DNA of 64,000 nt from Carcharhinus amblyrhynchos (Eukaryota), in contig OZ336877.1 of assembly GCA_965287045.1 (NCBI GenBank), forward strand, positions 88,474,001-88,538,000, given 5' to 3'. The position numbers and the translations under genes were made by a program. Shown piece by piece: positions 2,771 to 31,892 of the stretch. Below the pieces are notes generated by a model. It was not told where the DNA came from and searched no databases. It was given only the letters and a program-made list of their open reading frames with translations. Each line of letters opens with the position of its first letter. Positions within the stretch are counted from its first letter, which is position 1.

Positions 2771-4957
2771 TCTGAAGCATGATATGTGTAGTGTGAATGG
2801 CATGGACCATATCAGTCCAGGTTGGCTGGTGGATGGGAAAAAACGTGGGCTTTAGCAGAGTAGCTGGTGTTTTCGGCCAAATGTTAGAACAAATCTTGGT
2901 AAATGCTAGTGACTATTCTGGGGGGTGGAGTATTTTCTTAATCAGGCACTTCGTGGCCCAAAGAGGTAATCTCCTGTGGCAACGGTCACCTTGCAGCATC
3001 CACCCTCACAAGTACCCTCCCATTCTCCTTCTCTTGTTGGGGCCTGCTTAACTGGCTCTGATAAACTGAGACCCCTTTCATCTCATTGCAAAACAGCGTC
3101 CAGCGCCATGCCCTCTCAGCTTGTGCAGTCTCAGCAGTGACCACAGCTCCCAGTGACCACAGCTGAAACTGAAGAGCTGCTGACTGTCCGATTGGCTGGC
3201 AGCTCTTAGAGGTGGGCTCCCCTCTTTTAAAAGGTTTGGCATCCCACCGGCAGCCAATTAGTTGCCAGTTAGACTTAAAATGCAGCTGTGGCTCCCTAAA
3301 TGGCCACAGTGGGGTTGCCCCTCTCTTTCTGGCCTGCTGTTGGAGCTACCTCTGCCAGTTTACTTAAATTCATCTTAGGTTTTGTTGAAGACTTGTCAAT
3401 GCACTGAGTTTTTCATTGTGCAAACCCATCAGACTTCTTATGTAGTGAAGGAGTAGTAGGGGGTTTGAAATCAGCTGGCTCCACTGAGGCCAGCAGTTTC
3501 TTTGACTCACGACTGATCTGCACTCTGTAGCTGTTGAGGGGCGTTCCACTATCACTGTAAATGAAGGGGTGATTGATGACAGAAGACTGGCCTCAGTAAA
3601 ATTATTACACTGGCGATGAGGAATAAAGCAAGTACTTTTACTTCCCTCTGGATTGTCTTCACTATTGAGACAAACAATCCTCCAGTAAGAAACATGCCCC
3701 TTTCAGGAAAACTTGATGTAAGCACAGAAGACTGGGTCCAATACTCAGACCGCACACATTACTTTTTTTGGGCCAACAACATTGAGAGGGATGAGAAGTA
3801 GAAAGTGATCCTGTTGACAGTATGTGGGTTCCAACTTCAGTGTAATTCTGACCTACCGGGATGCCCAGACTCCAAAACCTTTAATGAATTTGTGGTCTTG
3901 GTTAAAAGCTATAATGACCCTAAATCTTCCATAATACTTTAGCAATACTGTTTTAACATGGCAAGGTGAACCCCTGGGGAAATCTGTGACCGAGTTGAAC
4001 AGGCTGCAAAAATTAGCAAAGTGCACGGAATTCAGGCCACCCCTAAACAAATGCTGCGAGATAGACTGGTCTGTGGAATTAACGAAGTGACAGTCTAAAA
4101 AATAATTATTGGTGGAACTCAACTTGTACACCATTGTGATAGCTCTATCATTGGAGATTGCAGAGAAAGGAGCTGAGGAATTATAGGAAACGTCAGATAG
4201 CCATGTCCTCAAATTGGAGGGAATGCGTCTCATGCACTGTACATCCCTCAACCGAGAACGATGGTATCGGTAAAATATCTGTGTCCCTGGCAGCAATGGT
4301 ACATGAGTTGCATCACCAGGCAATCAAGGGAAGTCAGGGACAGCCTTCAGACTCCTCGGAAGCATATTCCAGAAGATTGTGGGTGCCAAATGGCAGACTA
4401 TTGCAAGCACTGAAGAAGACCACAATCAAGGGTAAGTGATGGGGATAGTCATAACACATGCTATTTTGAGAAAAGGCCAAGGCCAATACCAGACTGTAGC
4501 TGGCAGAAAGGCCCACAATGAGGGCAATGCAATTAAATGGCATCTCCAGGACAAAAGTTGCCCCCATAATGGTGGAGTTGTTAGTAAATGGCCACCCATT
4601 AAAATAGGAGTGGATATGAGGACTGCAATCTCTGTTATCGGGGAGGAGACTTATGATCAACTCTGGGTTGATATTCAGCTCCTGAACTTAGAAAGCACAA
4701 GGCCAGGCTGGCCACAACACAGGGGAGCTGTGGCAAATAAAGGGCGCCATGGTGAGCCTAGTGACTTATAAGCAGCAGCCTGCTCAACTTGCACTCATCA
4801 TTGTATGGGGATAAGGACCTAGCCTAACAGGGAGAGATTGGTTCCAACACATCAGACTGAATCGGCCGGCGATCATTAGGTTAGGCACTGCAGGACTGTA
4901 CAAAGTCACCAGTAAGTACTCTGAAGTCTTCCAAGAAGAGCTTAGGAAAATAAAAGG

Positions 4958-5875
4958 ACATGATGTGGATATGCCGGCGTTGGACTGGGGTAAACACAGT
5001 AAGAAGTCTGACAACACCAGGTTTAAGTCCAACCGATTTATTTGATTGTAAACTCACAAGCTTCCGAGGTTAAGCTCTTCTTCAGGTGAATGAAGAGTTC
5101 TGGCCTCAGACAGAGCATATAAAGCACAGACAGCTTACAGATTACTGATTAGGATGCGAATCTTTACACCTAACCTGCTGTTCAAGTCTTAAAGTGGCCG
5201 ACAGTGTGAGTGGAAGGAGCACTGATCACAGGTTAAAGAGATGTGTATTGTCTCCAGACAGTACAGTAAGTGTGGTTTTGCAAACCCAGGCAAGTCACAG
5301 GGGTTACAGATAGTGCGACATGAACCCAAGACCCTTGTTGAGACCGTCCTCATATGTGCGGAACTTGGCTATCAGTCTCTGCTCAGTGACTCTGCGCTGT
5401 CGTGTGTTGTGAAGGCCGCCTTGGAGAATGACCTTTGGGTAACCATTCTCCAAGGCGGCCTTCACGACACACGACAGCACAGGGTCGCTGAGCAGAGACT
5501 GATAGCCAAGTTCCGCACACATGAGGACGGTCTCAACAGGGATCTTGGGTTCATGTCGCACTATCTGTAACCCCCATGACCTGCCTGGGTTTGCAGAACC
5601 TCACTTACTGTACTGTCTGGAGACAATACACATCTCTTTAACCTGTGATCAGTGCTCCTTCCACTCATATTGTCGGCCACTTTAAGACTTGAACAGCAGG
5701 TTAGGTGTAAAGATTTGCATTCTAATCAGTAGTTTGTAAACTGTCTGTGCTTCATGTGCTCTGTCTGAGGCCAGAACTCTCCATTCACCTGAAGAAGAGC
5801 TTAACCTCAAAAGCTTGTGAGTTTACCATCAAATAAATCGGTTGGACTTAAACCTGGTGTTGTCAGAATTTTTAC
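4958..5875. mobile_element. fold-back (inverted) Penelope-like element insertion no.1
   Basis: inverted arms 4999-5430 / 5444-5875, extra 41-nt tail on the left arm only; GIY-YIG C-terminus (ILQGGLHDTRQ..EQRLIAKFRTHEDGLNRD); 11-bp TSD aaaataaaagg at 4947-4957 and 5876-5886. Confidence 0.93.
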
Positions 5876-6747
5876 AAAATAAAAGGTGCCAAAGCTAAGA
5901 TTTACATTGACCCTGATGCTACGCCAAAGTATTTTGGAGTGAGATCGGTTCCATACTCCCTATTGGAAAAGGTCATGTCAGAACTGGAATGCCTGGAAAA
6001 CTGGGCATTATAAGACTCATTCAGTTTGCAGAGTGGGCCACACCTGTTGCTCCTGTCCTTAAGTCAGATAAGTCAGTCTGACTTTGTGGAGACTATAAGC
6101 TTACACTCAATAAAGATTTTAACTTGACATTTATCCCATGCCCCAGATTGAAGACCTGTACATCCACTTAATTTTGGCGGGGGGGGGGACATCAGCCATG
6201 TGTACCTCCAACTTGAATCAGACGAGCCTTCCCGAAAGTACGTAACAATTTATACACACAAAGGCCTATACGAGAACATTCACCTGCCTTTTGGGCTCTC
6301 ACCTGCATGCACCATTTTTCAATGAGTCGTAGAGAATATACTCCAAGGGTTACTTCAGAAAGTGTTATATTTGAACAATGTCTTAGTCATAGGAATTTTG
6401 AAATGCAAACATCTAGCTAACCGGGAAGAGGTCTTACGGCGATTTTCAGAGGTCAGGGTACACCTGAAAAGGGGAAAATGTGTCTCCCGAGTTAGTGCTG
6501 TGATCTATTTGGGCTATTGGGCAGATGGCAAGGACCTTCATCTGGAAGATGAGGTGAGGGCCTTAAGGAGGAGCCAATTCCAAAGAATCCCATGGAATTG
6601 AAATCCTTCTTGGGATTATTGAATTATTAGGGGAAGTTTATTGCTTCTTTGCTGGCCTCCCTGCATGCCCTACTATGGAAATATCAAAGGTGGCCTGGGA
6701 GAGTGGGGGCGGAGGGGGCTGCTGCAGCTAGAGACTTTCAACAGAAT

Positions 6748-7596
6748 TGTGACGTTAGTGTATCTTTAAGAAAGGTATTTAAAAGTCATGATCTCTGCTG
6801 CTCTCTTAGCTTCAGTGTTTCTCAGCTCACAGCCTCAGCTGAAGTTATTTGTTACTGGCTTGACTGGGGATATCCTTTTATTGTGACTTCAATAGCTGAA
6901 ATGGGGGTTGTTCATGTTTATCCTGGGATTGGCTTCATGGCTCAGCACTGTTAGGAGGAAGGTCATGGGTTCTGGTAAGTTTTTTTTTCCTTTCCGGAGT
7001 ATTCAAGGTTTAATTTTTTGTTTTTGGCTGACAACAGTGTTTTAGTTTAGAAGGGAGTGGACTTCAGACTGAAAGCAGTATCTCTCTCTCTCTCTCCTTG
7101 GTTTTGGGAAATTCTGCTGTTTAGTTGAAAGCCTTCCTGGAGTAGAAAATCTGCTGTTGGTGGATTACCTGCAGCCCCTGTTCTGGGAAGCTATCCTGAC
7201 TTCAAACTGTTCTGAGTCTATTCAGAGAACTGCAGATTTCATCCAAAGATCTCAAGTCCAGTATCACATCTTTGCTGTGTTAAACTTGTGAAAAGGGCTT
7301 TGTCTATGGGATTGGTTTGATTGGAACACATTAGATAAATTTGTTGAGGATTATACATTATAGTGGTTGTTCTGTTTCTTATTTGTAATTGATAAAAGTT
7401 CTTGCTAATTTTCTTACTATACGCGTTAACTATATTCTTAAATAAACTTTGTTTGATAAAATCTCCCTAGCAGGTCACTTGAATCAAACCTAAAGTAAAA
7501 CATATCATACTTATCCTAGACAAGTTCAAGAGACAAAACTTATGATCCAGGAGGGCTCCATAAAACACTTCAGAGTTTTTGGCCTGAATCATAACA
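6748..7596 (+). mobile_element. solo LTR inserted in the Gypsy pol region
   Basis: TG...CA termini (tgtgac...ataaca), 4-bp TSD GAAT (6744-6747 / 7597-7600), internal AATAAA at 7441; removal restores host frame ETFNRINQELLSS. Confidence 0.85.
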
Positions 7597-8524
7597 GAAT
7601 TAATCAGGAACTTTTGTCCTCTAATTTAATAACACACTTTGACCCCAAAATCGACCCTATCTTGACATGCGATTGCCCCCTCTCCCTTATGGGATTGGCG
7701 CAGTACTGGCACAATGCTGGAGAACTGGGACAGAGAAGCCTATTGCGTGCACATCTAGGACCCCCTCAGAGGCTAAGCAGAGGTATTCCCAGATCAAGAA
7801 AAGGGACTGGCAGTTGTTTTCAGCATTTAAAAACTTCCATCAGTATGTCTGTGGTAGACATTTTTTCATAGTGACTGATCATAAACCACTGCTGGGATAT
7901 TTTAAAGAAGGCAAAGCAATGCCCCCCACGCACACATTGCCTCTGCCTGGATACAATATTGGGTCTTGTTATTGGCGGCTTATGAATACCTCCTAGAAAC
8001 CGCCCCCCCCCAACCCCCCAGAGTTGGGTAGCTAACGCTAATGCATTGAGTCATTTGCCATTGCCCATAAGCCCAACTTCACAACAAGCTATGGAAGAGG
8101 TCATGATGAGCCTCAATGTTTTGGACATCTTGCTGATACTGCGGGGCAAATCAAGGCTGGAAAGGACCCAGTCCCAAGTGAATTAAAAAAACATAATACT
8201 ATATGGGGGATTCAGAGGACAGCCTTCAGATGAAATGAAGCATTACTGAACAAAGAAAGATGAGCTTGGTATTGAGGATGGCCTTATCCTCTAGGGTTCC
8301 TGCATAGCTATCCCTCGCACAGGGTGATGTTGGATACTTATAGCATTATACCATAGCCATCCCGGGATTTCAAAGATGAAAATGCTAGCCAGGAGTTATG
8401 TATGGTGGCCCGGCCTTGATTCAGACATTACTGATTTGGTTAGACAGTGTGAGTCATGTCAAGAGAATCAAACCCACTCCTCCCCCTTCAGCCACTGTAT
8501 GGGAATGGCCTTGTAGTCCCGGGG

Positions 8525-9565
8525 TGTTTTTTTTTGGATTTGATTTATTATTGCCATATGTATTAGTGTACAGTGCAAAGTATTGTTTCTTGCCTTCTAT
8601 ACAAATAAAGCATACTGTTCATTGAGAAGAAATCAAGAGAGTACAGAATGTAGTGTTGCAGTCATAGCTAGAGTGTAGAGAAAGATCAGCTTAATGTGAG
8701 GTAGGTCCATTCAAAAGTCTGATGGTACATAGAACATAGAACATAGAACACTACAGCACAAACAGGCCCTTTGGCCCACAAGTTGCGCCGATCACATCTA
8801 TACCTACCAAGCCACAGAACTATCTGTAACTTCCAATGCCATTAGATCCCATATACTCATCCAGAAGTCTTTTAAAATACCCCAGCGAGTCCGCCTCTAC
8901 CACCACCGACTACAGCTCCAAACATGTATACATATTTGGTGCTGTCATGTGAACAATAATCCTGCTGCCTCCCAGGCACAGCCAACATTTATGAATATGT
9001 GCTCAGGGCAGCTAAGTAGACCAAAACCAAATTTAAAGACCATGTTATGACTTAAATTAATACACATTAGTGGTTTATTGCTGTGTACCAATTTTTAGCT
9101 CAAGTCCCTGTTCTGTGTATTCGAGTTTCTCATTGCTTCTTATTGCCCTTTCGGTATTGTTCTTTCCCAACAAAAAACGGTGAAGCTGTAGAATGTGCAT
9201 GCATTCAGATACTGCCAAATGACCCGTAGAGATATGTTATGTGGGGGAGGACATCATAGGTTACTGCTGCGTGGCTACAATCAAAGACTGGGTTGAAATT
9301 GGTAGCAGGGAAGAAGCAGTTCTTGAGTCAGTTGGTACATGACCTCAGACTTTTGTATCTTTTCCTGACGGAAGAAGGTGTGAGAGAGTATATCCGGGGT
9401 GCGTGGGATCATAATTATGCTGGCTGCTTTGCCGAGACAGCAGAAAGTGTAGACAGAGTCAATAGATAGGAGGCTGGTTTGCGTGATGGACTGGGCTTTA
9501 TTCATGACCATTTCTAGTTTCTTGTGGTCTTGGGCAGAGCAGGAACCATACCAAGTTGTGATACA
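8525..9565 (-). mobile_element. Rex1/Babar-type LINE 3' fragment, itself interrupted at 8728-9299
   Basis: minus ORF NKAQSITQTSLLSIDSVYTFCCLGKAASII resembles the Rex-Babar C-terminus; AATAAA/A-rich tail at left end. Confidence 0.75.
8728..9299 (-). mobile_element. chimeric insertion: CR1 3' end (8728-8910) plus about 390 bp unrelated sequence
   Basis: (catagaa)n tail and body similar to the CR1 end at 31893-32296; whole unit flanked by 5-bp repeat tggta (8723-8727 / 9300-9304). Confidence 0.7.
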
Positions 9566-10630
9566 GTCAGAGTGTGTGAGTGTGTGTAGACTCCATTGGG
9601 TGTTTTATGGGTTCCATGTTACTGATTATAGTTGACGTGCATTCCAAATGGTTGGAGATGCATAGGATGAATTCCATCACTTCCCATGATGCCATTGAGA
9701 AACTATGACAAGGTTTCTCCACGGATGGGACATCTGAAATCTGGGTTTCTGACATTGGCACTGCCTTTACTTGTACCAAGTTTCAGACCTTCACGCATTC
9801 CAATGGAATCAAACACATTAGAACAGCACCTTATCACCCGCCATCGAATGGGTTGGCTAAATGAATGGTGCAAACTTTTAAGCTCGGCACCCTGTAGCAT
9901 CCGTAGAGACCAAACTGGTGTATTCTTTATTCGACTATAGGACTCCCCCTCACACAACGATAGGAATCACCCCAGCAGAATTGTTAATGAAATGGAGGCT
10001 TTGGACAAGATTAAGCTTACTATCACCAAACCTGGCGGGGAGCGTGGAGTTCCAAGAAGAGAAGTAGAAGAAGAATCATGATTCTGTAAGGACAGACAGA
10101 ACATTCAAAATTGGCCACCCAGTGCACATGAGGAACTTTGGGGACAGGCCTCAGTTGGGTCCCCAGGATTGTAACAGCGAAAATGGGAGCTCCCTGTCCT
10201 ATGAAGTCCAAATACAGGGCAAGATTTTCAGAAAACACCTGGACCATTCCCGGAATAGGGAGTCCACGCTGGTACAAGCATCATTACCAGCCATGGGGAT
10301 GGCCACTGCCAGCATTGAGCCACTAATGAAGGTTGACCCCACACCGGCCCCTCCGTGTGATGAGGATATGGATTCCAATATGGAAGGGGAAGAGACTGGC
10401 ATCCTTACTGAAATGAGACCTTAGGAAGAGTGAGAGTGTGTGAATTTGCAGCTTTCTCCTCAGGAGCAAAGGTCTCCCATCTGCATCATACCCCGGTCCG
10501 GTCCTGCCTCCAGCAATACCAGACCAATCACTAAGATGCAAAAGACTCTCCCATGGCGGGGGTGCAGGGGAAGAAACAGACTTGAGGGGGGAGTGATGTT
10601 GTAATGGCCATGAGGGATCTTCAGTAGGTC

Positions 10631-10820
10631 TTAGGCTAATTGGTGTAACAAATTGTCCCTAAATTAGTCTCCCCTCAATCTGGTTTCCAATGTGGAGTGC
10701 CATAAGCGTAGACAAGGGTCACGGGTGGAAGAGGGAACTCACAATGTTAAAATGGCGGTGCGGGCTCGATGGGCCGAAGGGCCTGTTTCCCGTGCTGGGT
10801 TGTTCTTTGTTCTTTGTTTT
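10631..10820 (+). mobile_element. 5'-truncated SINE with (GTTCTTT)n tail inside the Gypsy 3' LTR
   Basis: similar to 31006-31228; ends gggcctgtttcccgtgctgggttgttctttgttctttg. Confidence 0.75.
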
Positions 10821-11195
10821 TTGTCTCCCTATAGGCCTCTTTGAATATGAGCTCCCCTATTAGGGGAGTGAAAGCTCATCCAATAAGGAAGGAGCAGTGG
10901 GGGGTTTAAAATCAGCTGGCTTCACTCACGCTGATAGTCAATAGACTTGGACCGATTCTGCATTGAATGGTGCTCACGTCTCACTGTGAATAAAATGGTG
11001 ATTCGTGATGGAAGACTGGCCTTGGTACGATTATTACATTAGTCCACTCCATAGCAGCGCTCATCTGAGTCCTCTGCAGCAGAACCTGTATGTGAATGTA
11101 CCCTCAGATAGACTAGCACTTGTGCTAACCTTGCTTTGGCTACCAACCACTCATGTAGATCCTATCTCTAAGCTGTCTTGTAAATTATATGCGGT

Positions 11196-12326
11196 TGTTG
11201 AGATCCCTGGAGAGACTGACAACATTTAGAATCATATTAAAATTTTTAGTGTCTGACTAGAAGGATCACATGACAAGATTTCAAGTTTTAAGACTTTTGC
11301 CGTAATAAACAAACTAAAAGCAATCTTATATAAATGTTATCTAATAGGCAACATTTACTCAAAACTATAGAAGAAATATCCCCCATTTAACTTTTAAAAC
11401 CACAGAAATCCCTCCTCCTTAGTTATACTTCACTTTAAGATGGCACAGTGGCACAGTAGTTAGCACTGCTGCCTCACAACGCAAGGATCCAGGTTCAATT
11501 CCAGCTTGGATCACTGTCTGTGTGGAGTTTGCATGTTCTCCCTGTATCTGTGTGGGTTTCCTCTGGGTGATGCTGGTTTCTTTCCATAGTCCAAAGAAAT
11601 GCAGGTTAGGTTGATTGGCCATGCTAAATTGCGACTAAATGTCAGGAGATTCACAGGGTAAATTTGTGTGGAACAGAGCCTGTGTAGGATGGTAGTCAGT
11701 GCAGACTCAATAGGCCGAGTGGCCGCCTTCTGCACTGTAGAGATTCTATGATTCAGATTCTATGACTCTGTCCTTTAAGTGTACACTTTATTCTACAGAA
11801 ACCAGTGCAAAGATATTCTTAACTCCTGATGACATGTTTCTATTTTCCTTTTTCAGCTGGATAACTTCTAACCCCCAAACTGATTTTCACGATGAGGGTT
11901 GAATTGGACCTTCTTACCTCTAACCAAGCTAGGCAAATCTTCTAGTCTTGTTTAAATCCTCACAAAGTCGGTCTTCTTAATCTGATCATGAACTCCCTCC
12001 TATCTAACGACTGACTGGGCATTCTCTCTACTTAAGCTGCAGGGCTAGCCGCTTCTATTTTTCTCGGCTGTTTCTTTACACAGGTTCTTGCAGACTGACC
12101 TCTGAGGTTCAGTGGTAGCTTAAAAAACTTGTAAGTTGATAGTGTACTGGCTTGCAATGGACACTTCCAGTCTTAGCCCATCTCTAATGCTATGGGCCTA
12201 GTGAGTAGGTAGAAATGCTAATTAGCTGTCCTTTTGACTCCCAACTCATTTCATCTTGGAAAGGAATAGACAGTTTAATTTATAACCATTTATGAAAGCT
12301 GACATTCTTAATACCTCCCTGTGACT
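11196..12326 (-). mobile_element. putative old solo-LTR-like repeat (interrupted by a SINE)
   Basis: tgttga...tgtgac ends; shares cacat(g/a)acaagatttca with the 39551-40679 segment; no TSD recognised. Confidence 0.3.
11441..11766 (+). mobile_element. HE1-like SINE (CR1-type tail)
   Basis: tRNA head, core, attctatgattc tail. Confidence 0.9.
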
Positions 12327-12611
12327 TAGAACATAGAACATAGAACACTACAGTCTATTGGCCGTCAGCACAGTTGCCCTGGTCATTGTTTGTAAGTATA
12401 AATAGATCATGCCTTCTTCCAAGTTACACAACTTGAGTCTCCACTTTAACCTTTTAATAATCAAGCCAACCAATTCAGGCAGAATTCAGGAGATATCACT
12501 TGACACATACCATCGTCCACTTTGATTGAGCTGATGTAAAACTCTGTTGCCCATTACCCAACTCAGACCAACCCTGGTTACCCATCACCCCTGTGCATGC
12601 TGACCTAATTT

Positions 12612-12951
12612 GACAGCATGGTATCACAGTGGTTAGCACTGCTGCTTCACAGCTCCAGGGACCTGGGTTCGATTCCTGGCTTGGGTCACTGTGGAGATTG
12701 CACATTCTCCTCGTGTCTGTGTGGGTTTCCTCTGGGTGCTCCGGTTTCTTCCCACAGTCCAAACATATGCGGGTTAGGTTGATTGGCCATGCTAAAATTG
12801 CCCCTTAGTGTCCTGAGGTGCGCAGGTTAGAGGAAATAGCGGGTAAAATATGTAGGGATATGGGGGTAAGACCTGGGTGGGATTGTGGTCAATGCAGACT
12901 GAATGGGCCGAATGGCCTCTTTCTGCACTGTAGGGTTCTATGATTCTATGA
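12612..12951 (+). mobile_element. HE1-like SINE (CR1-type tail)
   Basis: tRNA head, core, ttctatgattctatga tail. Confidence 0.9.
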
Positions 12952-13458
12952 CATTCGGTCCAGCTGTGCCTCCAATTGAAATTTCTCATCCTTATGTTCG
13001 AATCCTTCCATGTCCTCACCCCACTCTATCTTGATAATCCCCTACAGCCCTCTGAAAGCTCACCATTCCTTTAATTCTGATGTCTAGCACATTCTTCACT
13101 CCTTTTGCTAACTAGAAACAGTTCCTCATCTCTGCTCTACCTCTGCCACCCATCCTTCCCCTTTTGAAACTCTCTTCCTAAATCACTTCCATTTTAAACT
13201 CTTAATTCTTATTTTCAAATGGTTTCTTAAACTTTTTTCATCCACTCTTACAGCCTCATTCCCTAGCAATCTAGCAATATTTCCCTCACAACTGATAACT
13301 ATATATTTTCTTCCCATAAAAACATTGTACTGTATAGTATTTTCCTAAAGAACTGTGTAGTATATAGTAAATTATCTAATTTTGTACATGCTTATACTGA
13401 GAATTGTGTCTAGGATCTTGGGTAACAAAGCTAATGTTGCTGTTTCCTCCTGTCCTAG

Positions 13459-13593
13459 ATGTTTTCATATCTTCTGATGTCTGCATCTACTTTTGCCTTT
13501 ATAATGATGTGGGAGATTAGCCATTATGTATTATTTGTACAAGCCCTCAGTGTTTTCCTGTTGGATTGCCTGGATCTAATTCAAAGCCGCAAG
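13459..13593 (+). CDS. DPY19L4: DPY19L4 coding exon B
   Basis: cctag|ATG...AAG|gtatgt; 135 nt, phase 0/0; [45 protein letters not shown]. Confidence 0.93.
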
Positions 13594-14639: not shown

Positions 14640-14748
14640 TGAATGAAATTTTACAGCCGCTTCCGCCAACAGAATTTTCTGGTTCTGAATGCCTCTCCAC
14701 ATTTTTCAGCCCCAGCTACACTGTGGCAGGGCTGTAATATTCTGCCCT
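14640..14748. mobile_element. short MITE-like remnant
   Basis: imperfect terminal inverted repeats aattttacagcc / ggctgtaatatt. Confidence 0.4.
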
Positions 14749-16597: not shown

Positions 16598-17346
16598 CAT
16601 AGAAGATAGGAGGAGGCCCTTTGAGCTTATTCTGCCATTTATTACGATCATAGCTGATCATCCAACTCACTTCTGAGCCTAATTCTGCTTTCTCCCCTTA
16701 CCTTTGATCCCATTCGCCCCAAATGCTATATCCAGCCGCCTCTTGAATGCATTCAGTGTTTTGGCATTGACTACTTCCTGCGATAATGAATTCCACAGGC
16801 TCACCACTCTTTGGGTGAAAGAATGTCTCCTCACCTCCATCCTAAATGGTCTACCCTGAATCCTCAGGCTGGGACCCCTGATTCTGGACTCATCCATCAT
16901 TGGGAATATCCTCCCTGCATCCCCCCTACCTAGTCTTGTTAGAATTTTATAAGTCTCTAAGATCTCCCCTCATTTGTCTGAACTCCAGCAAAAACAACCC
17001 TAACCTAGTCAATCTCCTCATACGTCAGTCCCGCCAACCCCGGAATCAGCCTGATAAACCTTCACTGCATTCCCTCAAGTGCAGGAACATCCTTCTTCAG
17101 AAAAGGAGACCAAAACTGCACACAATGCTCTAGGTTTGGCCTCACCAAGGCCCTATATAATTGCAACAACACATCGCTGTTCCCGTATTCAAAACCCCTC
17201 ACAATGAAGGCCAACATGCCATTTGCCTTTTTTACTGTCTGCTGCATCTGCGTGCTTACCTTCAGTGACTGGTGCACAAGGACACCCAGGTTCTGCTGCA
17301 CACTCCCCTCTTCCAATTTACAGCCATTCAGGCAGTAATCTGCCTT
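16598..17346 (-). mobile_element. CR1 LINE 3' fragment
   Basis: minus ORFs LGVLVHQSLKVS..LYRALVRPNLEHCVQFWSP and FTQRVVSLWNSL; 3'UTR hairpin region. Confidence 0.9.
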
Positions 17347-21700: not shown

Positions 21701-22213
21701 CTCAGTAGACGAGCCCTCATCAAACATCCTTTCTGCCACCATAATACTGTCCTTGACTAACAATCCATACCTCCCCTCTTTTACTACCTTCCCTGATCTT
21801 ACTGAAACATCTAAACCCTGGAACCTGCAACAACCATTCCTGACCCTGCTCTGTTGTGGCCATGTCTCTGAAATGGCCACAACATCAAAGTCCCAGGTAC
21901 CAATCCGTGCTGCAAGTTCACCCACCTTATCCTGGATGCTCCTGGCGTTGAAGTAGACACACTCCGAGCCACCTTCCTGCCTGTCGGTACACTCCTGTGA
22001 CCTTGAAACCATATTCATGACTTCTCTACTCTCAACCTCCTATACACTGGAGCTACAATTCAGGTTCCCATCCTCCTGCTGAATTAAACCCTCCCGAAGA
22101 GCATTAGCAAATTTCTTTCCCAGGGTATTGGTACCCCTGTGGTTCAGGTGTAGACACAGTAAAAAGTCTGACAACACCAGGTTTTAGTCCAACCTATTTA
22201 TTTGATAATATTC

Positions 22214-22251
22214 TCACTAGCTTTCGAGGGGACAGCCTCTTCGTCAGGTGA
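22214..22251 (-). ncRNA. minimal type I hammerhead ribozyme motif (mirror copy)
   Basis: exact reverse complement of 23766-23803. Confidence 0.82.
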
Positions 22252-23765
22252 ATGGAGAGTTCTGGCCTCAGACAGAGCATATAAAGCACAGACAGTTTAG
22301 AGATTACTGATTAAAATGCGAATCCTTACACCTAACCTGCTGTTCAAGACCTGAAGTGGCTGACAATGTGAGTGGTAGGAGCACTGATCACAGTTTAAAG
22401 AGATGTGTATTGTCTCCAGACAGTACAGTAAGTGAGGTTTTGCAAACCCAGGCAAGTCACGGGGGTTACAGATAGTGCGACATGAACCCAAGATCCCTGT
22501 TGAGACCGTCCTCATGTGTGCGGAACTTGGCTATCAGTCTCTGCTCAGCGACTCTGCGCTGTCGTGTGTCGTGAAGGCCGCCTTGGAGAATGCTTACCCG
22601 AAGGTCAGAGGCTGAATGCCCGTGACCACTGAAGTGTTCGCCAACAGGAAGGGAACAGTCTTGCCTGGTGACTGTCGAGCGATGTTCATTCATCCGTTGT
22701 CGTAGCGTCTGCATGGTCTCCCCAATGTACCATGCTTCGGGACATCCTTTCTTGCAACGTATCAGGTAGACAATGTTGGCCGAGTTGCAAGAGTATTTAC
22801 CATGTACCTGGTGGATGGTATTCTCACGTGTGATGATGGTGTCCATGTCGATGATCCGGCATGTCTTGCAGAGGTTGCTGTGACAGGGTTGTGTGGTATT
22901 GTGGTCACTGTTCTCCTGAAGGCTGGGTAGTTTGCTGCGAACAATGGTCTGTTTGAGGTTGTGTGGTTGTCTGAAAGCAAGAAGTGGGGGTGTGGGGATG
23001 GCCCTGGCGCCAGGGCCATCCCCACACCCCCACTTCTTGCTTTCAGACAACCACACAACCTCAAACAGACCATTGTTCGCAGCAAACTACCCAGCCTTCA
23101 GGAGAACAGTGACCACAATACCACACAACCCTGTCACAGCAACCTCTGCAAGACATGCCGGATCATCGACATGGACACCATCATCACACGTGAGAATACC
23201 ATCCACCAGGTACATGGTGAATACTCTTGCAACTCGGCCAACATTGTCTACCTGATACGTTGCAAGAAAGGATGTCCCGAAGCATGGTACATTGGGGAGA
23301 CCATGCAGACGCTACGACAACGGATGAATGAACATCGCTCGACAGTCACCAGGCAAGACTGTTCCCTTCCTGTTGGCGAACACTTCAGTGGTCACGGGCA
23401 TTCAGCCTCTGACCTTCGGGTAAGCATTCTCCAAGGCGGCCTTCACGACACACGACAGCGCAGAGTCGCTGAGCAGAGACTGATAGCCAAGTTCCGCACA
23501 CATGAGGACGGTCTCAACAGGGATCTTGGGTTCATGTCGCACTATCTGTAACCCCCGTGACTTGCCTGGGTTTGCAAAACCTCACTTACTGTACTGTCTG
23601 GAGACAATACACATCTCTTTAAACTGTGATCAGTGCTCCTACCACTCACATTGTCAGCCACTTCAGGTCTTGAACAGCAGGTTAGGTGTAAGGATTCGCA
23701 TTTTAATCAGTAATCTCTAAACTGTCTGTGCTTTATATGCTCTGTCTGAGGCCAGAACTCTCCAT

Positions 23766-23803
23766 TCACCTGACGAAGAGGCTGTCCCCTCGAAAGCTAG
23801 TGA
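23766..23803 (+). ncRNA. minimal type I hammerhead ribozyme motif (PLE-type)
   Basis: stem I tcac/gtga, core CUGACGA, stem II gagg/cctc, GAAA, palindromic AGCU stem III, predicted cut after CUA (23799). Confidence 0.82.
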
Positions 23804-24384
23804 GAATATTATCAAATAAATAGGTTGGACTAAAACCTGGTGTTGTCAGACTTTTTACTGTGTTTACGCCAGTCCAACGCCGGCATACCCACATCATGAC
23901 TACTATCGTTCAGGTGTAGACCATCCCATTTGTAGAGGCCCCACTTACCCCAGAATGAGACCCAATTATCCAGGTATCTGAATCGCTCCATCCTGTACCA
24001 TCCCTGTAGCCACATGTTCAACTGCTCTCTCTCTCCCTATTCCTCGGCTTGCTAGCACATGGCATGGGCAACAAACCAGAGATAACAACTCTGTTTGTTC
24101 TAGCTCTAAGCTTCCACCCTAACTCCTTTAATTTCTGCCTTACATCCCCATCCCTTTTTCTACTTATGTCGTTGGTGCCTTTATGGACCACGACTTGTGG
24201 ATGGTCCCCCTCCCCTTAAAGATCCCGAAAACATGATCTGAGACATCACGGATCCTGGCACCTGGGAGGCAACACACCAACCGCAAGTCTCCCTTGTTCC
24301 CACAGAATCTCCTATCTGTCCCCCTAACTATGGGGTCCCCAGTGACTAATGCTCTACTCCTTTTATATCTGTTTTATCAGCTCA

Positions 24385-24715
24385 CTTCAGATTCCATATG
24401 ACTTTATCTTCTGCATCAGCCTGTCTTGAGGAACCTTATCAAAAGCTTTACTAAAGTCCATGTATACAGCATCCACTGCTCTGTCCTGGTCAATTTTTCT
24501 TGTCACTTCTTCAAAGGACTCAATCAAGTTTGTGAGACACGACCTCCCCTTCACAAATCCATGCTGCCTATCATCAATAAGCCTATTCTTTTCCAGATGT
24601 GAGTGCATCCTATCCTAAGAATCTTCTCCAATAATTTCCCCACCACTGATGTAAGGCTCACAGGCCTGCAATTTCCTGGATTGTCTCTTCTGCCCTTCTT
24701 GAACAGAGGAACAAT
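24385..24715 (-). mobile_element. CR1 RT fragment
   Basis: QHGFVKGRSCLTNLIESFEEVT..VYMDFSKAFDKVP. Confidence 0.9.
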
Positions 24716-24769
24716 TCAATTAAGCGATGTGGACTTTGCTAACTAGTCCAGCATTCAGTGCCCATCCAT

Positions 24770-25002
24770 AATGATGTTAGGGGTAGGTTTTTCACTCAGA
24801 GGGTGGTGAGTGAATGGAATTGGCTGCCGTCAGTGGTGGTGGAGGCGAACTCGCTGGGGTCTTTTAAAAGACTTCTGGATGAGTATATGGGATTTAATGG
24901 GATTGGGGGTTATAGAAAGGTCTATGGATTGGTAGGTATTGATGTGATCGGTGCAACTTGTGGGCCGAAGGACCTGTTTGTGCTGTAGTGTTCTATGTTC
25001 TA
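24770..25002 (+). mobile_element. CR1 3' end
   Basis: DVRGRFFTQRVVSEWNWLP.. then gttctatgttctat tail. Confidence 0.88.
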
Positions 25003-25004
25003 TA

Positions 25005-25890
25005 ATTGCCCTTGTGAAAGTGGTGGTGAGCAGCCTTCTTGAGCCACTGCACTCCAAGTGGCGTAGATACACCCATAGTTGTGTTAGGTAGAGTGTTCCA
25101 CGATTTAGGAACAGCAATATATTTCCAATCAGGATGGTGAGTGACTTGAAGGCGAACTTGCAGTTGTGTTCTCATGCATCTGCTGCCCTTATCCTTCTAG
25201 ATGGTACACGCCATGGGTTTGGAAGGTGCTATATGAGGAACTTTGGTGAGTCCCTATAGTGCATCTTGTAGATGGTACACGCTTGTTGCTACTGTCCATC
25301 GGTGATGGAGGAAGTGGATATTTGTGGAAGGAGTGTCAACCAAGCTGGCTGCTTTGTCCTGGATGCTGTCAAGCTTCTTGAGTGTTACTGGAGCTGCCCT
25401 CATCCAGGCAAGGGGGAAGTATTCCATCACACTCCTGATTTGTGCCTTGTAGATTGTGGACAGGCTTTGGGGAGTTGGGAAGTGAGTTGTTCACCACAGG
25501 ATTTGTAACCTCTGACCTGCTCCTGCAACCACAGTATGTATATGGTAAGTCCAGTTAACTTTCTGGTCAGTGATTACCTCCAGAACGTTGATAGTAGGGG
25601 ATTCAATGATGGTAATGCCATTGAATGTCAAAGGGCAATGATTAGATTGTCTCTTGTTGGAGATAATAATTGCTTGGCACTTGTTTAGTGTGAGTGTTCC
25701 TTGCCATTTGTCAGCCCAAGCCTGGATATTGTCCAGGTCTTTCTGTATTTGAACATGGACTGCTTTAGTACCTGAGGATTCACAAATGGTGCTGAACATT
25801 GTGAAATCATCAGCGTACATCCCCTCTTCTGACCTTATGACGGTAGAAAGGTCATTGACAAAGCAGCTGAAAGTGGCTGAGGCAAGAACA
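25005..25890 (-). mobile_element. older CR1-like LINE fragment
   Basis: minus ORF CFVNDLS..MYADDFTMF..QKDLDNIQAWADKWQ..NKCQ. Confidence 0.85.
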
Positions 25891-26202
25891 CTAGTATACT
25901 TCTTTGAACCCAAAACATATGAATGAAAACTGAAGCACAATAAATTAATATTGTATTTTATAGTATTCAATCCAAATGGCAGCATTTTGCAGGCGCCATC
26001 CCAGTGACTTTATGAAACTGAAGTAAACATTACATTTGGCTGTACACTTATCCTTTTACACTGCAGTACTGTTCATAGCAGTTATCTGAGTGGGAACCAT
26101 ACTCTCTGCAAGAGCAGATCAATGTTAGAAAATTAAAGATAATTAAAGTCAGTTGAGGTGAGGTGGTAGGTAATTGCTCATCTGATGCAAAGTAGATACC
26201 AT

Positions 26203-26325
26203 GGGCAGGATTTTACAACCTCGCTCGAGCGAGACCAGAATACCAGCCTGAGTTCAACAGATGCATCTGTTGTTCATCCCTCGCCCGCTCCGATTCTGTG
26301 ACGCATGGGGCAGTAGAATTTCGGC
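26203..26325. mobile_element. short MITE-like remnant
   Basis: imperfect TIRs ggcaggattttac / gtagaatttcggc around a CpG-rich core. Confidence 0.4.
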
Positions 26326-26426
26326 ATATGTCTGTCTTGGCCTGTTTTTCATAGTTGTTTGTTTGTCACTATGACTGTGACTTCAACCCTGGAATTCACG
26401 ATTTCTTTTTATTGAAATATGCACAG

Positions 26427-26500
26427 AAAATGGTCCCCCAAGAGGAAAATGAACACATAATAAAGTTTTTTGAAGCAAAATTTGACTTGAATACTACAAG
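26427..26500 (+). CDS. DPY19L4: DPY19L4 coding exon E
   Basis: cacag|AAA...AG|gtatgt; 74 nt, phase 0/2; KMVPQEENEHIIKFFEAKFDLNTT(R). Confidence 0.92.
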
Positions 26501-28365
26501 GTATGTTTGAGCTTTTTTACTTTTTAAAGTTTCTTTTGGAACAATATATGGGTGCTGCAGAATAGATTCAGTAAGTTTCAAATTGAGCTTTAACTGTTTG
26601 AGTACTAATGCTAATCTATCTTGTTGCATTTCAAAGTAAGAAAGAGAATACTTAAATTAGTTGCTGTTAGTCAGTGCTCTGGTAGAGATGCTACAGTTGG
26701 CTTCACTGTTCTGTTCAAGGGATAAAATTGGTTAGGACTCTGTCTGGCATCACTGCTGTGAACATTTGGATGTCCATGTTGTACAAAGATGCACCGTTGC
26801 TTGGCCACAATGCCCCTACAGTTGAGTAGCCTGCTAATGTTCATTGCCATAGTTGACAATGGTAATGAGTCAGCTTTGTAGGACCTGGAAAAAACACCTA
26901 TTAAAATAATACCAGAAAAAAAGGATTATAGAGGACAGCAAACGGCCTTTTTGATTAGAACATCTAGCCAGTTCCAAAACAGCAACTTAACACATACACG
27001 AAGTAAAAATAGGCAGAGCAAAGAATCTATATTGTTAATGGTGTGTGGTTGACCATCCCAAAATAGATCGTGCTCTTGGTATAATGGTTATGCCTTCTGT
27101 AACAGGACTACATAAAGCCAGAATGCATAACCCATCTTCGGAAATCCCCAAAAAGAAATCAAATGTTTTTAAAGGATGTTCTTACAAAAAAAAATCAATG
27201 GGGTCAGTTAAAAGGCCAACTCAAATGGGTAATTTTTATGGCTTAACATCACCTGCCAAAAAATGGCATCTATTACTTTACATTATTTTGCAGCTCCCAA
27301 CCAGTGAACTGAAGATCTATCAGCCCCCAGAAGAATCTAAAATAAATGTACTGCACACTGCAAGATCTTTCTGTTTTTTAAGCTTTAAAAAGAGAAAATC
27401 TCAGGTGCTCCTCCTACTCCATCACCACTTGTCCCTGTCCCAGTCAGTGACTACCCCTCCCTGTTTTGCGAAACTCTGCAACTGAACCCTATATCCTCCC
27501 TGTGCTCTTCACTACAGAAAATTCTCACTTCATCCTTTCCTCGCCTTCCACCTACCAATGAGATAAAATCAGGGAATGCTGCTGTTTAGAAAGGAATAAA
27601 CATCGGCAAGCACCCTAACCCCAATGCCTGAGACAATATTTTTAATTATACGTTCACTACTGGTTCTTAATGAACCTCCACCACCCCCACCCTCACCCAC
27701 TGCGCATGTGTTTTCACAACACATCTCCCAACACAAATACAGATACCAGACCCCGTATTGCAATGGGGCGTGTATCACATACAGGGATTTTCTGGGTTTT
27801 GAATCCAGGGCTGTGGATGGTGGTAGAGAGAATGGGATAACTTAAAGCCGGGTGGGTTTCCCCACTGAGCTGCACCCATGCACCCAGCTGGGATGGGAAA
27901 AGGAAGGAATGTGAGTCAGGCCAGCTTCCACCGTTAGAGTCCAGGGGATCAGCGCGTTGCATCCCAGATATGATGGCAAGTAATGCCTGATGGGTAGGAT
28001 AGTTTCCACGGCACGGCATAGTTTTCTGGTCCTTCCAGATTTTCAGAAGCTGGATAAGTGGTCCTGGACCTGGATACCAACGAGGGTCCTTCCCATTCCC
28101 CACTACCGAAATTAAATAAAACAGTGCCTATTTTACTGTATTGAGGCGAATGTTGATGCATTTCCTTATTTTGCATTGCTTGTTATCTTTAGTCTTGTTT
28201 TTGTAGTTCAGTAACACCTGAAGTGACTTGGAGGGTGGATTATCTGTAATCTGAGAAAAGATCTCATAAAACTAAATTTATTCAGTATAATGTTGTCTTG
28301 TTTGATTTTTGATAATTTGTTTTTACAATTTCCCTGGATTATCTACAAAATAAAGTCAATAAGGC

Positions 28366-28675
28366 ACAAAATCTCACTAACTGTCCTGTCTGGAGACAAT
28401 ACACATCTCTTTAACCTGTGCTTAACCCTCTCTCCACTCACATTGCCTGTACCTTTAAGATTTGATTACCTGTAAAGACTTGCATTCCAACCATTATCTT
28501 GTAATTGTGTTTGTATCTATATATGCCCTCTTTGTGAACACAACTCCTCACTCACTTGAAGAAGGAGTGACACTCTGAAAGCTTGTGCTACCAAATAAAC
28601 CTGTTGGACTTTAACCTGGTGTTGTGAGACTTCTTACTGTGCTTGCGCCAGTCCAGTGCTGGCATCTCCACATCA
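28366..28675 (+). mobile_element. solo Penelope-like 3' end (second subfamily) with degenerate hammerhead and full tail
   Basis: ctgtctggagacaatacacatctctttaacctgtg...; cac-TTGAAGA-a-ggagt-gac-actct-GAAA-gctt-gtg (28553-28587); aataaa; tail ...ctccacatca. Confidence 0.85.
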
Positions 28676-30056
28676 CTGCAGCAGTTTGATACTGGGAGCC
28701 ATGTTAAATGCCTCTGAGCTAAAATTTTGCCCCAATCCCTGGATGAAGCTCCACCTGAGACAGCTGAGAGCCTGTCAGATAACCAGACTTGGGTGAGGGT
28801 GGGAATGGTCCCTCTGGATCAAGAGAGCACATATAGGTGATCTTTCCCCCCTTGTCCAGCTGGAGCCGGCAAGCTTCCTGTCTGGAATGGGCCTCACTTT
28901 CTCTCCACCCTCCCTAGATTTTAAGGCAGATCAGAGGTGGATTTTATGTAGCTGCAGTCACCTTCAAACTCACGTGCAGAGGAGAGTGAAATCCAGCCCA
29001 TGGTTTTCACCCAGGAGCTCGCAGGTAACAGCAGGTGTGTTACTTTGAGTCCTGCCTGAGGCACGCCTGCAAACTAATCCCGTCATAATCACTGGGAAAA
29101 CTTATAGGGTACTGTTAGATTTACACAGATATCATTCGAAATGCAAACTCAATAGAACAGAGAGAATAAAATCTGTGCACTTTCACTCTGTTATGGATCA
29201 TATGATGCTTCACATTCTATTCAGGAATAAAAGCGCAGATGTATTTGATGAGAACTTTAAGAAACATCTGCAGTACCTAGAAGATACAAAAGAGCAAAAT
29301 AAGACTTTCATACTAAATAGCATTCTTTAATGTAGAAAAATGTCCCAAGATGCTTAACAAAGGTGTAATCTTTTGAAGGGCAATGGCTAACAATGTAATA
29401 GATTTTAGGAAGCCTAGAAGTTGTGAACATGGGAAGTAATACGAATATTGACATTTGAAATGCCATTGGGCACCTAATGAAATCTTCTGTGCTGAAGACT
29501 TCTGCAATGAGCTTCATACAGGGATTGGGCATATTTGACACATGAACAGAACAGAAATGGTCCCCCAAAATACCTGTTCCATTTCTTGAAGCAGAAACAG
29601 TTATTGAAATAAGTGTTACTTTTGGAGGTTAACAGTGCTAAAGTATTACAGATATTTGGAGTTGGTGTATGTGTATTCCCTTATATAATAATGAGACCTA
29701 CTGTCCCCTTTTAGCAGAACTCTGGCCTCTTGTGTAACTTGACATACATGTTGTGCAGTGACTATATTAATTGTATTGTACAATTGTATTGTGATGAGTG
29801 TTTTGGATAGAAATCTAGACTTGTACATTTTTTTTATTGTAGTGTTAGTTTGTTTCTTTAATGAATTTTAAAATTGATTTTTTGTTTAAATTCTATTTTT
29901 GTTGGACTACATGAATAGTGCAGTATAGTATTAAACCCTTTCTGAAGTTGAGAATTTTAGATCACTAAAATGAGAAGGTATGATCGGGAGTATGGTTTAC
30001 TGCTGTTGTGTTCCTTACTGTTCTAGTAATTTGCATTTATTTCTTTTTTAACTTAG

Positions 30057-30215
30057 AGACTTCAACACAAATTTGCTGCTCTGTCAGGAAACCTTCCAAA
30101 CTCCATCACAAGAATTCTTTATCCGACTGACTCAGACCTGTCTGCTCCCATTCTGTATGTCTGTGTTGGTTATCTGCCTTTTCTCAACCTTGGAAGTAGC
30201 TTCCAGGAAGTTTCG
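30057..30215 (+). CDS. DPY19L4: DPY19L4 coding exon F
   Basis: cttag|A...CG|gtaagg; 159 nt, phase 2/2; DFNTNLLLCQETFQTPSQEFFIRLTQTCLLPFCMSVLVICLFSTLEVASRKF(R). Confidence 0.93.
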
Positions 30216-30497
30216 GTAAGGTGGGAATTAAGGGTTGTTGTCAAAGCATATTACTGTGTGCATCCAAAAGATTTAGTCTGAATTCTAAAGAAATACTCTA
30301 CAATTCATTTGAGATGGCATAGTGGTTAGCTCTGCTGCCTCACAGCACCAGGGACCTGGGTTCAGTTCCTGGCTTGGCGTCACTGTCTGTGTGGAGTTTG
30401 TACATTCTCTGTGTCTGTGTGCGTTTCCTCCGGGTTCTCCAGTTTCCTCCCACAGTCCAAAGATGTGCTGGTTAGGTGCACTGGCCATTCTGAATTA

Positions 30498-31482
30498 TGA
30501 TGTGGATATGCCGGCGTTGGACTGGGGTAAACACAGTAAAAAGTCTGACAACACCAGGTTTAAGTCCAACCGATTTATTTGATAGTAAACTCACTAGCTT
30601 TCGAGGGGTTTCCCTCTCCTTCAGGTGAGTGGAGAGTTCTGGCCTCAGACAGAGCATATAAAGCACATACAGTTTACAGATTACTGATTAGAATGCGAAT
30701 CTTTACACCTAACCTGCTGTTCAAGCCCTAAAGTGGCCGACAATGTGAGTGGAAGACTGTTCCCTTCCTGTTGGCGAACACTTCAGTGGTCACAGGCATT
30801 CAGCCTCTGACCTTCGGGTAAGCATTCTCCAAGGCGGCCTTCACGACGCACGACAGCGCAGAGTCGCTGAGCAGAGACTGATAGCCAAGTTCCGCACACA
30901 TGAGGACTCAACAGGGATCTTGGGTTCATGTCGCACTATCTGTAACCCCCATGACTTCCCTGGGTTTGCAAAGCCTCACTTACTGTACTGTCTGGAGACA
31001 ATACAGTGAGTTTCCTCTGGGTGCTCCGGTTTCCTCCCACACCCCAAAGATGTGCTCTTAGGCTGATTGGTGTACCAAATCGACACTATTCTCCCCTGAA
31101 TCTGGCAACATTAGGGATTCCATTCACATACACACAGGGCATGGTAGGTGTAGGAAGATGGGGCGGCGTGGGCTCGTTGGGCCGAAGGGCCTGTTTCCCA
31201 TGCTGGGTTGTTCTTTGTTCTTTGTTCTAATACACACATCTCTTTAACCTGTGATCGGTGCTCCTTCCACTCACACTGTCGGCCACTTTAGGACTTGAAC
31301 AGCAGGTTAGGTGTAAAGATTCGCATTCTAATCAGTAATCTGTAAGCTGTCTGTGCTTTATATGCTCTGTCTGAGGCCAGAACTCTCCATTCACCTGAAG
31401 AAGAGGGAAACCCCTCAAAAGCTAGTGAGTTTACTATCAAATAAATCGGTTGGACTTAAACCTGGTGTTGTCAGACTTTTTA
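30498..31482. mobile_element. fold-back Penelope-like element insertion no.3 (asymmetric arms)
   Basis: short minus arm with full tail 30498-30755 joined through aag microhomology to a longer plus arm (DCSLPVGEHF...AKFRTHED) ending cagacttttta; 13-bp TSD ccat(t/g)ctgaatta at 30485-30497 / 31483-31495. Confidence 0.92.
31006..31228 (+). mobile_element. 5'-truncated SINE with (GTTCTTT)n tail nested in Penelope arm
   Basis: SINE core tttcctctgggtgctccggtttcctcccac; TSD aataca (31000-31005 / 31229-31234). Confidence 0.85.
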
Positions 31483-31892
31483 CCATGCTGAATTACCCCG
31501 TGGTGTCAAGTAAATGTGTAGGTTATGGGGATGGGGCCTGGGTGGGATTGTGGTCAGTACAACCGAATGGCCTCCTGCTGCACTGTAGGATTCTATGAAT
31601 ATATAATAGTGCACTTGCATTAAGTTTTATATGTATGAAATCCTTTTAGAAAATATTTCATGCAACTGCAGGATTAATTTATTGACTAGAATAAGCAGTG
31701 AATGGGAAAGAGTGACTAATACTGGAAACATTTAACTGGATGCTAAGACAATGTGCCTCATCATTTGTTTGATGCATGCTATGCCCATTAATTTGAGAGA
31801 TGCTGGTGTTGAACAGACGAACTTTAGTATTTTGGACATTTTGTTTTAGTGGTAAGTATTCCTAAATATTGTTTTGTTTCTGGAAATGTTGT

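Follow-up and report, generated by a model that had tools for sequence, protein, structure and literature searches.

The stretch analyzed here (64,000 nucleotides of contig OZ336877.1 from Carcharhinus amblyrhynchos, referred to as a whole as the window) contains five insertions of one element family, which by its coding and ribozyme sequences is a Penelope-like element (PLE), i.e., a retrotransposon with a C-terminal endonuclease (EN), in a shark-like genome. Three of these insertions are head-to-head pairs (insertion 1, 4958-5875; insertion 2, 22156-23907; insertion 3, 30498-31483) and two are solo copies (28367-28675, which carries the tail described below, and 38374-38478, which lacks it). 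Each pair is composed of two 5'-truncated 3' ends of the high-copy PLE and contains no full open reading frame (ORF), and three of the five insertions have an inverted 5'-truncated copy with a target-site duplication (TSD) around the whole unit. An earlier reading made from the letters alone (the sequence-only reading) had proposed for these pairs that reverse transcription starts internally and that the cDNA then snaps back and is copied; the tailed solo is a fifth copy absent from that reading. The insertions are built as follows.

4947..4957, + strand: left TSD of insertion 1, 11 bp, exact, AAAATAAAAGG
4958..5430, - strand: tailed arm of insertion 1, with the end of the GIY-YIG ORF, the 3' untranslated region, and a hammerhead
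4958-4998, - strand: tail of insertion 1, ending in CATCATG plus one extra letter
5429..5875, + strand: tail-less arm of insertion 1; TG overlap at 5429-5430, unpaired loop at 5431-5443 (13 nt), end TTAC
5876..5886, + strand: right TSD of insertion 1, 11 bp
22142..22155, + strand: left TSD of insertion 2, 14 bp, GTTCAGGTGTAGAC; pairing with the RNA just past the tail-less end is possible over the final 9 nt
22156..23008, - strand: tail-less arm of insertion 2, ending in TTACTGT
23009..23907, + strand: tailed arm of insertion 2; perfect palindrome axis at 23008/23009
23009..23551, + strand: open 3' part of the PLE ORF in insertion 2, 180 amino acids, GIY-YIG; mirror copy at 22466-23008
23764..23804, + strand: hammerhead motif of insertion 2, minimal type I
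23824..23878, + strand: conserved hairpin, GTTGGACT (23824-23831) / AGTCCAAC (23871-23878)
23859..23907, + strand: tail of insertion 2, running into ATG ACT ACT ATC, putative ORF start MTTI (23896-23907)
23908..23921, + strand: right TSD of insertion 2, 14 bp
28367..28675, + strand: tailed solo copy of an older subfamily, ~72% identical to insertion 2
30485..30497, + strand: left TSD of insertion 3, 13 bp, one mismatch, inside a short interspersed element (SINE)
30498..30755, - strand: tailed arm of insertion 3, tail at 30498-30535
30753..31483, + strand: tail-less arm of insertion 3; AAG overlap at 30753-30755, later SINE-derived insert at ~31006-31233
31483..31495, + strand: right TSD of insertion 3, 13 bp
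38368..38486, - strand: tail-less solo copy, hammerhead end module; 10-bp TSD at 38368-38377/38477-38486

The element family and its other copies

The longest arm (insertion 2) has 180 open codons with a GIY-YIG domain, and these last 180 amino acids before the stop match PF01541 with 23.2 bits (cut-off, 22.6; E, 8.3e-05). The closest named relatives of this ORF are shark proteins (82-91% identity), some of which have a reverse transcriptase (RT) domain upstream (RVT_1 in P0003 and P0005); the window copies are all truncated, and the RT part lies outside the window. A Pfam scan of three relatives yielded no RNase H. Every arm also contains a minimal type I hammerhead motif (stem I, CUGANGA, a variable stem II, GAAA, and a palindromic AGCU) of a kind described for PLEs (PMC4209133). 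Its stems I and II and its core are kept in six of six aligned sequences, with compensatory changes in stem II, and Rfam gave no match for it at the gathering threshold. Given the C-terminal GIY-YIG domain, the RT-bearing relatives, and the PLE-type hammerhead, we therefore classify the element as a PLE by sequence. The label Poseidon would denote resemblance only and is not tree-based, and Naiad is excluded by the C-terminal EN and the hammerhead, following the description of Naiad (PMC8557442). A miniature inverted-repeat transposable element or foldback DNA transposon was rejected on account of the coding 3' end and the tail asymmetry. Pieces of the endonuclease are also contained in the annotated shark gene isoforms P0012, P0018, P0024, P0025, P0033, and P0034, where they are probably gene-model read-ins of insertions.

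For further copies, we used the contigs of 4 of 24 sequencing runs aligned to the plus arm of insertion 2 (23009-24100). Each run gave 63,939 to 116,990 contig records on these 1.1 kb, which indicates a very abundant family but is not a copy number. The contig tables comprise the best 15 of 226 joints, the best 24 of 4605 loose ends, and the best 12 of 134 rows in the table with the tandem-like joints; they come from short contigs, in which the centre of a copy is not linkable to its tail and the orientation of strand-switch joints is not given. A 28-nt pattern of the 3' module had no matches in metagenome, viral, and prokaryotic collections, while a profile scan yielded 12 related loci. Two of these 12 have long inverted arms, both ended by the contig end. 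In one of them (L005), the long arm continues through the tail to an ATG at the contig end, and the centre overlap is 2 nt. This locus could be a counterexample to the arrangement seen in the window or could be just a tandem unit or a collapsed assembly, and it was therefore left out of the counts.

Several further observations concern these loci and the surroundings of the insertions. In two distant PLEs on metagenome contigs (L001, 965-1110; L005, 1315-1470), the hammerhead, TGGAC stem, TTCTT(T)AC site, and tail follow one another as they do in the window, and the 5' end of L005 bears a truncated copy in inverted orientation. L002 (1-496) contains a fold-back junction inside a related PLE's ORF, with arms of 136 nt that are 98% complementary and 224 nt apart, cut by the contig end. 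In the window, the tail-less solo (38368-38486) starts ~6-8 nt upstream of hammerhead stem I and downstream of a TATA-like motif (23732 in the insertion 2 arm), and an RNA starting at that point may have given rise to this solo by run-off copying. AATAC occurs at both ends of the insert at 31006-31233, which joins a SINE fragment to another piece that has TTTGTTC repeats at its end. All three palindromes lie inside older repeats (~4560-6150, 21900-24100, and 30300-31600), and we take their hosts to be a long terminal repeat (LTR)-retrotransposon-like pol remnant, a minus-strand CR1-like long interspersed element (LINE), and a tRNA-type SINE. The window also holds SINE and LINE fragments. Further dispersed inverted repeat pairs that are 71-90% alike (16691-17339 with 36778-37420; 8736-8916 with 24823-25003) are probably separate LINE fragments.

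Target-site duplications, tails, and start sites

The TSDs of 11, 14, and 13 bp claimed by the sequence-only reading were all recovered (4947-4957/5876-5886 and 22142-22155/23908-23921, both exact; 30485-30497/31483-31495, one mismatch), and in insertion 3 the first C of the TSD doubles as the last C of TTAC. Among ~3000 random flank pairs used as a control, an exact repeat of at least 11 bp occurred in one and an exact repeat of at least 13 bp in none. The solo at 38374 has a 10-bp TSD that had gone unreported; a TSD was sought for the tailed solo at 28367-28675 and none was found. These duplications bear on the possibility that the fold-backs, mainly insertion 2, are assembly or library artefacts. 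The arms of insertion 2 are almost identical and spacer-free, and its junctions are confirmed by no contig piece among those listed, which come from samples that may or may not carry insertion 2, but this insertion has an exact 14-bp TSD, a single tailed arm, and one difference between its arms. Moreover, the arms of insertions 1 and 3 have diverged, insertion 3 has a later insert in one arm, and strand-switch joints occur in independent runs. Given the exact TSD, the one-arm tail, and the diverged arms of insertions 1 and 3, we rejected an assembly artefact, which we consider extremely improbable.

The tail is 39 to 49 nt long and is present on one arm only in each of the three insertions, with four tailed and four tail-less among the eight element ends in the window. 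The asymmetry reported earlier thus stands, with tail-less ends at TTAC (insertions 1 and 3), TTACTGT (insertion 2), and TT(ACTG) (the solo at 38374). An RT start at an internal site ~40 nt upstream of the tail end is supported, as is the claim that the tail cannot come from the tail-less cDNA and needs another source; both points had already been shown or implied for lizard Poseidon (PMC11167929). Any model therefore has to include a second priming event templated by RNA.

The further claim that the tail end corresponds to the RNA 3' end was not supported. Loose ends with mixed flanks were found at 23896, 23897, 23901, and 23903 (among the best 24 of 4605), showing that the tail end is ragged over 23896-23903 and that at least ATGACTAC, into which it runs, is templated element sequence; at the tail-less site, there was no loose end among the same best 24. 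The summed depth in the tail bin was 0.60 to 0.67 of that in the preceding bin and then dropped ~30-fold beyond the tail in four of four runs. ATGACTACTATC gives MTTI, which is read in insertion 2 as ATG ACT ACT ATC, and related full-length ORFs start with MASMDT and MPYLDT. MTTI is a putative start, as no shark protein with this N terminus was present among 142 proteins compared. Given the ragged tail ends and the templated ATGACTAC, which resembles an ORF start, RT probably starts a second time within the RNA, at the ORF's ATG, and this start marks the tail end. By analogy with what is reported for Adineta and D. virilis, the tail may run into the start of a next tandem unit. The window contains no partial tandem or pseudo-LTR (pLTR), and two joints of other copies, from 23858 to 23080 and from 23895 to 23079, resemble tandem joins (among the best 12 of 134 rows). 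In these joints, one internal position is reached both from a tail-less end and from a tailed one, which hints at a truncated tandem subfamily.

The tail also supplies the 3' strand of the hairpin GTTGGACT/AGTCCAAC, which encloses the tail-less start site (~23856-23862). This hairpin is paired in 47 of 48 cells of an alignment of six sequences, three of them close kin and two of them the distant non-shark L001 and L005, with one compensatory change. Folded as single sequences, the hammerhead and tail regions were no stabler than shuffles in seven of seven cases (z, -0.9 to 1.0). At the four tail-less junctions, the target primer can pair with the RNA over 0, 9, 7, and 4 nt if wobble is allowed (insertions 1, 2, and 3 and the solo at 38374, respectively); the 9-nt pairing includes two wobble pairs, and the solo pairing uses the last 4 nt of its TSD. 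With seven free registers, this wobble-tolerant pairing exceeds that of random primers (P = 0.004) and of the shuffled own flanks (P = 0.002). Pairing at the two tailed junctions examined was weak (3 and 1 nt with wobble).

Centres and arms of the palindromes

The centre microhomologies of 2 to 3 nt described by the sequence-only reading were confirmed in part. Compared with the sequence of other copies, the TG of insertion 1 and the AAG of insertion 3 are true overlaps (chance of both together, P ~0.03), while the CG of insertion 2 depends on an upstream Leu codon that is lost: CTC would make it a 2-nt overlap, and each of the other five Leu codons would make it 0 nt. In other copies, six opposite-strand joints that are 43 to 165 nt apart share 0 or 1 letters (among the best 15 of 226), and a microhomology of 2 to 3 nt is therefore unlikely to be a rule. 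The unpaired centre belongs to the tail-less arm, as claimed, in insertion 1 (13 nt) and in insertion 3, where the 508 nt between the arms comprise ~280 nt of element and the later insert of ~228 nt. Insertion 2 is uninformative, with a loop of 0 nt under every possible upstream Leu codon, which leaves n = 2 (chance, P = 0.25). A consistent polarity is not supported by these data, given only two informative cases, a loop-free youngest insertion, and a possible deletion of the centre after insertion.

Such later change is the core of one alternative, in which near-perfect palindromes would gain loops by asymmetric deletion of the centre, on a random side, and shared variants by conversion. We treat it as a real rival because only the insertion with near-identical arms has no loop: the loop is 0 where the arms have one difference, and loops are present where they have diverged by 3.2% and 6.9%. 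Asymmetric centre deletions are known to stabilize palindromes in vertebrate cells (PMC8701086). However, this alternative leaves the tail asymmetry and the TSDs unexplained, loop size and age are not in step (the oldest insertion has 13 nt, the middle one ~280 nt), and inverted truncated copies have also been reported in young PLE copies (PMC3846280, PMC8557442). Taken together, we consider it quite unlikely.

The zero loop of insertion 2 also bears on a completed form of the snap-back proposed by the sequence-only reading, in which a tail-less cDNA would fold via 2 to 3 nt and be copied, and a short second cDNA from the other nick would add only the tail and capture the copied strand. Consistent with this route, the TG and AAG overlaps come with the loop on the tail-less arm in two of two cases, and a 13-nt loop is plausible as a hairpin. 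Snap-back of cDNA has been documented for R2 (PMC11371274), and self-priming has been proposed for PLE inverted junctions (PMC3846280). On the other hand, hairpins leave 4 to 6 unpaired bases (PMC7999016), so that the zero loop is impossible intramolecularly; all six listed opposite-strand joints of other copies share 0 to 1 letters (best 15 of 226); and a second RT priming would still be required. Given that the second priming required by the tail already accounts for the second arm, snap-back is not needed. It is not supported as a general route, and we regard it as rather unlikely.

The private variants claimed for the two arms of one insertion were found for the stem II loop, which is equal between arms in three of three insertions and differs between them (five different loops among the five insertions of the window), but the shared states are mostly common ones of subfamilies. 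A near-private variant is the C at 23176, present on both arms of insertion 2, where 98.8 to 99.99% of the family depth has T. This suggests that both arms derive from one source or were later homogenized, and it would also fit copying by snap-back. Over the shared 220-nt core, the arms differ by 6.9% (insertion 1), 0% (insertion 2), and 3.2% (insertion 3), and the tailed arm of insertion 1 is closer to the tail-less arm of insertion 3 (5.0%) than to its own partner (6.9%). Insertion 2 has a single arm difference (23219) over 23009-23861. The arms overlap by ~220, 430, and 850 nt across the three insertions, and in two of the three their 5' stops lie within 0 and 15 nt of each other.

These comparisons bear on whether two separate RNAs of one subfamily were copied, one from each nick, with the cDNAs then end-joined. 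In L1, two RT products can be joined head to head (PMC11702581), the PLE protein is a predicted dimer (PMC11167929), and three shared alignment columns, two of them non-CpG, separate the arms of insertion 1 as well as those of insertion 3. This alternative is at odds with arm ends that are 0 and 15 nt apart in two of three insertions and with stem II loops that match in three of three despite the five loops of the window, and we consider it very improbable.

Two observations on the arms stand by themselves. In an alignment covering columns 337, 407, 480, and 542, the arms of insertions 1 and 3 disagree at the same three columns (one of them CpG), and the tailed arm of insertion 1 has CTTCTTAC, like older subfamilies, where its partner has TTTTTAC; these disagreements may reflect recurrent mutation or mixed templates. 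In addition, 22156-23861 is a 1.7-kb spacer-free palindrome in a vertebrate assembly, with one arm difference and the ORF open on both arms, which is probably very young or kept alike by conversion.

Proposed twin priming and its relation to known systems

Both target 3' ends of every palindrome lead into element sequence in antisense orientation, and twin priming from two nicks at two start sites is the simplest account of this arrangement. We judge it about equally likely to be right or wrong that the insertions are dead-on-arrival 5'-truncated copies of an EN-positive (EN+) PLE made by twin target-primed reverse transcription (TPRT), with the cDNAs joined head to head. On this account, the element's enzyme makes staggered nicks 11 to 14 bp apart, as the TSDs show. 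One 3'-OH would prime inside the conserved RNA hairpin, often with a few base pairs to the RNA, and give the tail-less cDNA; the other would prime where the following tandem unit of the same read-through RNA has its ATG, 39 to 49 nt downstream of the first site, and give the tailed cDNA. The same RNA stretch would thus be copied twice, the second synthesis probably displacing the first cDNA, and the cDNA 3' ends would be joined head to head with 0 to 3 nt of overlap and then filled in. One RNA is favored because the arms match in subfamily in three of three insertions and, in two of the three, have stops that are 0 and 15 nt apart, and the zero loop of insertion 2 suits two meeting cDNA ends. 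Copying one RNA a second time would require that it survives and that the RT displaces the first cDNA, as proposed for non-LTR elements lacking RNase H (PMC2881922). The TSDs, the end positions, the arm structure, and the two overlaps are read directly from the window; we infer the order of the starts and the number of templates.

Several points weigh against this account. There are only three palindromes, with two informative loops; one tail in each of three would arise with P ~0.10 if the ends chose their start sites independently; and the tailed solo at 28367 has no partner. A loop of more than ~4 nt has the same sequence whether it arose from ends joined in trans or from a snap-back in cis, the shared variants could stem from later arm-to-arm conversion, and the arms of insertion 1 differ where each state (CTTCTTAC versus TTTTTAC) matches another subfamily. 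The primer pairing is absent in insertion 1, was noticed post hoc with n = 4, and is not significant with Watson-Crick pairs only and a free register (P = 0.16). Finally, Frangieh 2024 (PMC11167929) found no strand difference in the start site and no target homology, which speaks against the order and the pairing proposed here.

A more specific version of twin TPRT, in which two subunits of one dimer on one RNA would use the two start sites in a fixed order, is possible but doubtful. The first RT would start within the hairpin, where pairing with the nicked target, wobble included, would assist it; its copying of the hairpin's 5' strand would free the tail, and the second RT would then prime from the opposite nick near the ATG and chase the first ("chase" twin TPRT). 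With the tail-less start firing first and the tailed start trailing, the tail-less arm would never be the shorter one, and the excess of the tail-less arm (0, ~15, and ~285 nt) fits this order. Given that a trailing cDNA could not pass the leading one, both the polarity suggested by the sequence-only reading and a zero loop would be allowed. This fixed-order version is a lead only, for which three copies give a testable prediction rather than a result.

Complex insertions of EN+ PLEs have been described before (Arkhipova 2013, PMC3846280; Craig 2021, PMC8557442; Schostak 2008, PMC2377424). The shark insertions share with them the head-to-head inverted copies, a TSD that encloses the complete unit (in Adineta, 8-10 bp), a tail of 30 to 40 bp that is often at one end and overlaps the ORF start, and a junction overlap or palindrome. 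They differ in that the arms are bare truncated 3' ends, the TSDs are 11 to 14 bp, and the tail reaches 49 nt. Arkhipova 2013 (PMC3846280) proposes self-priming for inverted pLTRs, which are described there as having a TSD, palindromes at the junctions, and a tail on one of the pLTRs, and Craig 2021 (PMC8557442) finds the tail often confined to a single end, whichever of the two that is, and regards the mechanism as undefined. In the passages concerned, these accounts do not relate the tail side to the longer arm. Among the titles and abstracts searched, none links tail side to arm length or twin priming to PLEs, although two reviews of 2005/2006 (Evgen'ev and Arkhipova; Arkhipova) may do so.

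For Poseidon PAc of Anolis carolinensis, Frangieh 2024 (PMC11167929) found in vitro that both strands are nicked and extended, with a predicted dimer, and that RT starts at two internal sites bounding the tail, in a stem-loop downstream of the hammerhead. The shark element agrees with PAc in its two probable internal start sites downstream of the hammerhead, the tail between them, and the proposed extension of both strands. Unlike in PAc, short primer-RNA pairing (wobble allowed) is possible at three of four tail-less junctions, and the putative ATG is at the tail end, whereas that of PAc is in the hammerhead; fold-back products and firing order lie outside the treatment in that paper's sections concerned. 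As in L1 twin priming (PMC11702581), both target ends would prime on one RNA, the TSD is kept, and ends are joined with short microhomology. Adjacent-segment twin priming of the L1 type was rejected: L1 arms cover adjacent RNA parts with a 1- to 10-bp overlap or gap, whereas the shark arms copy the same hundreds of bases (~220, 430, and 850 nt). R2 snap-back (PMC11371274) likewise places an inverted cDNA copy beside the 5' end of the insertion, but in the passages concerned the template of its product is the cDNA or target DNA close by, whereas the second shark arm has 39 to 49 nt absent from the first. With a first arm that lacks the tail in three of three insertions and the loop of 0 nt in insertion 2, a pure R2-type snap-back was also rejected.

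In summary, the three insertions are real and follow a pattern already described for this class of PLEs. The internal start put forward by the sequence-only reading is right but published, its RNA-end and snap-back parts are not needed, and its polarity is a fair prediction from two cases. Newly added here are the hairpin around the internal start that is closed by the tail and, noticed post hoc, the possible target-primer pairing (wobble allowed) at three of four tail-less junctions. The origin of the inverted pLTRs of PLEs is stated as open in Craig 2021 (PMC8557442), and the later insertion steps were left unvalidated by Frangieh 2024 (PMC11167929), as far as the relevant parts of both papers go. 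If true, fixed-order twin TPRT would explain the single-end tail, the inverted pLTRs, and the never-shorter tail-less arm in one step.

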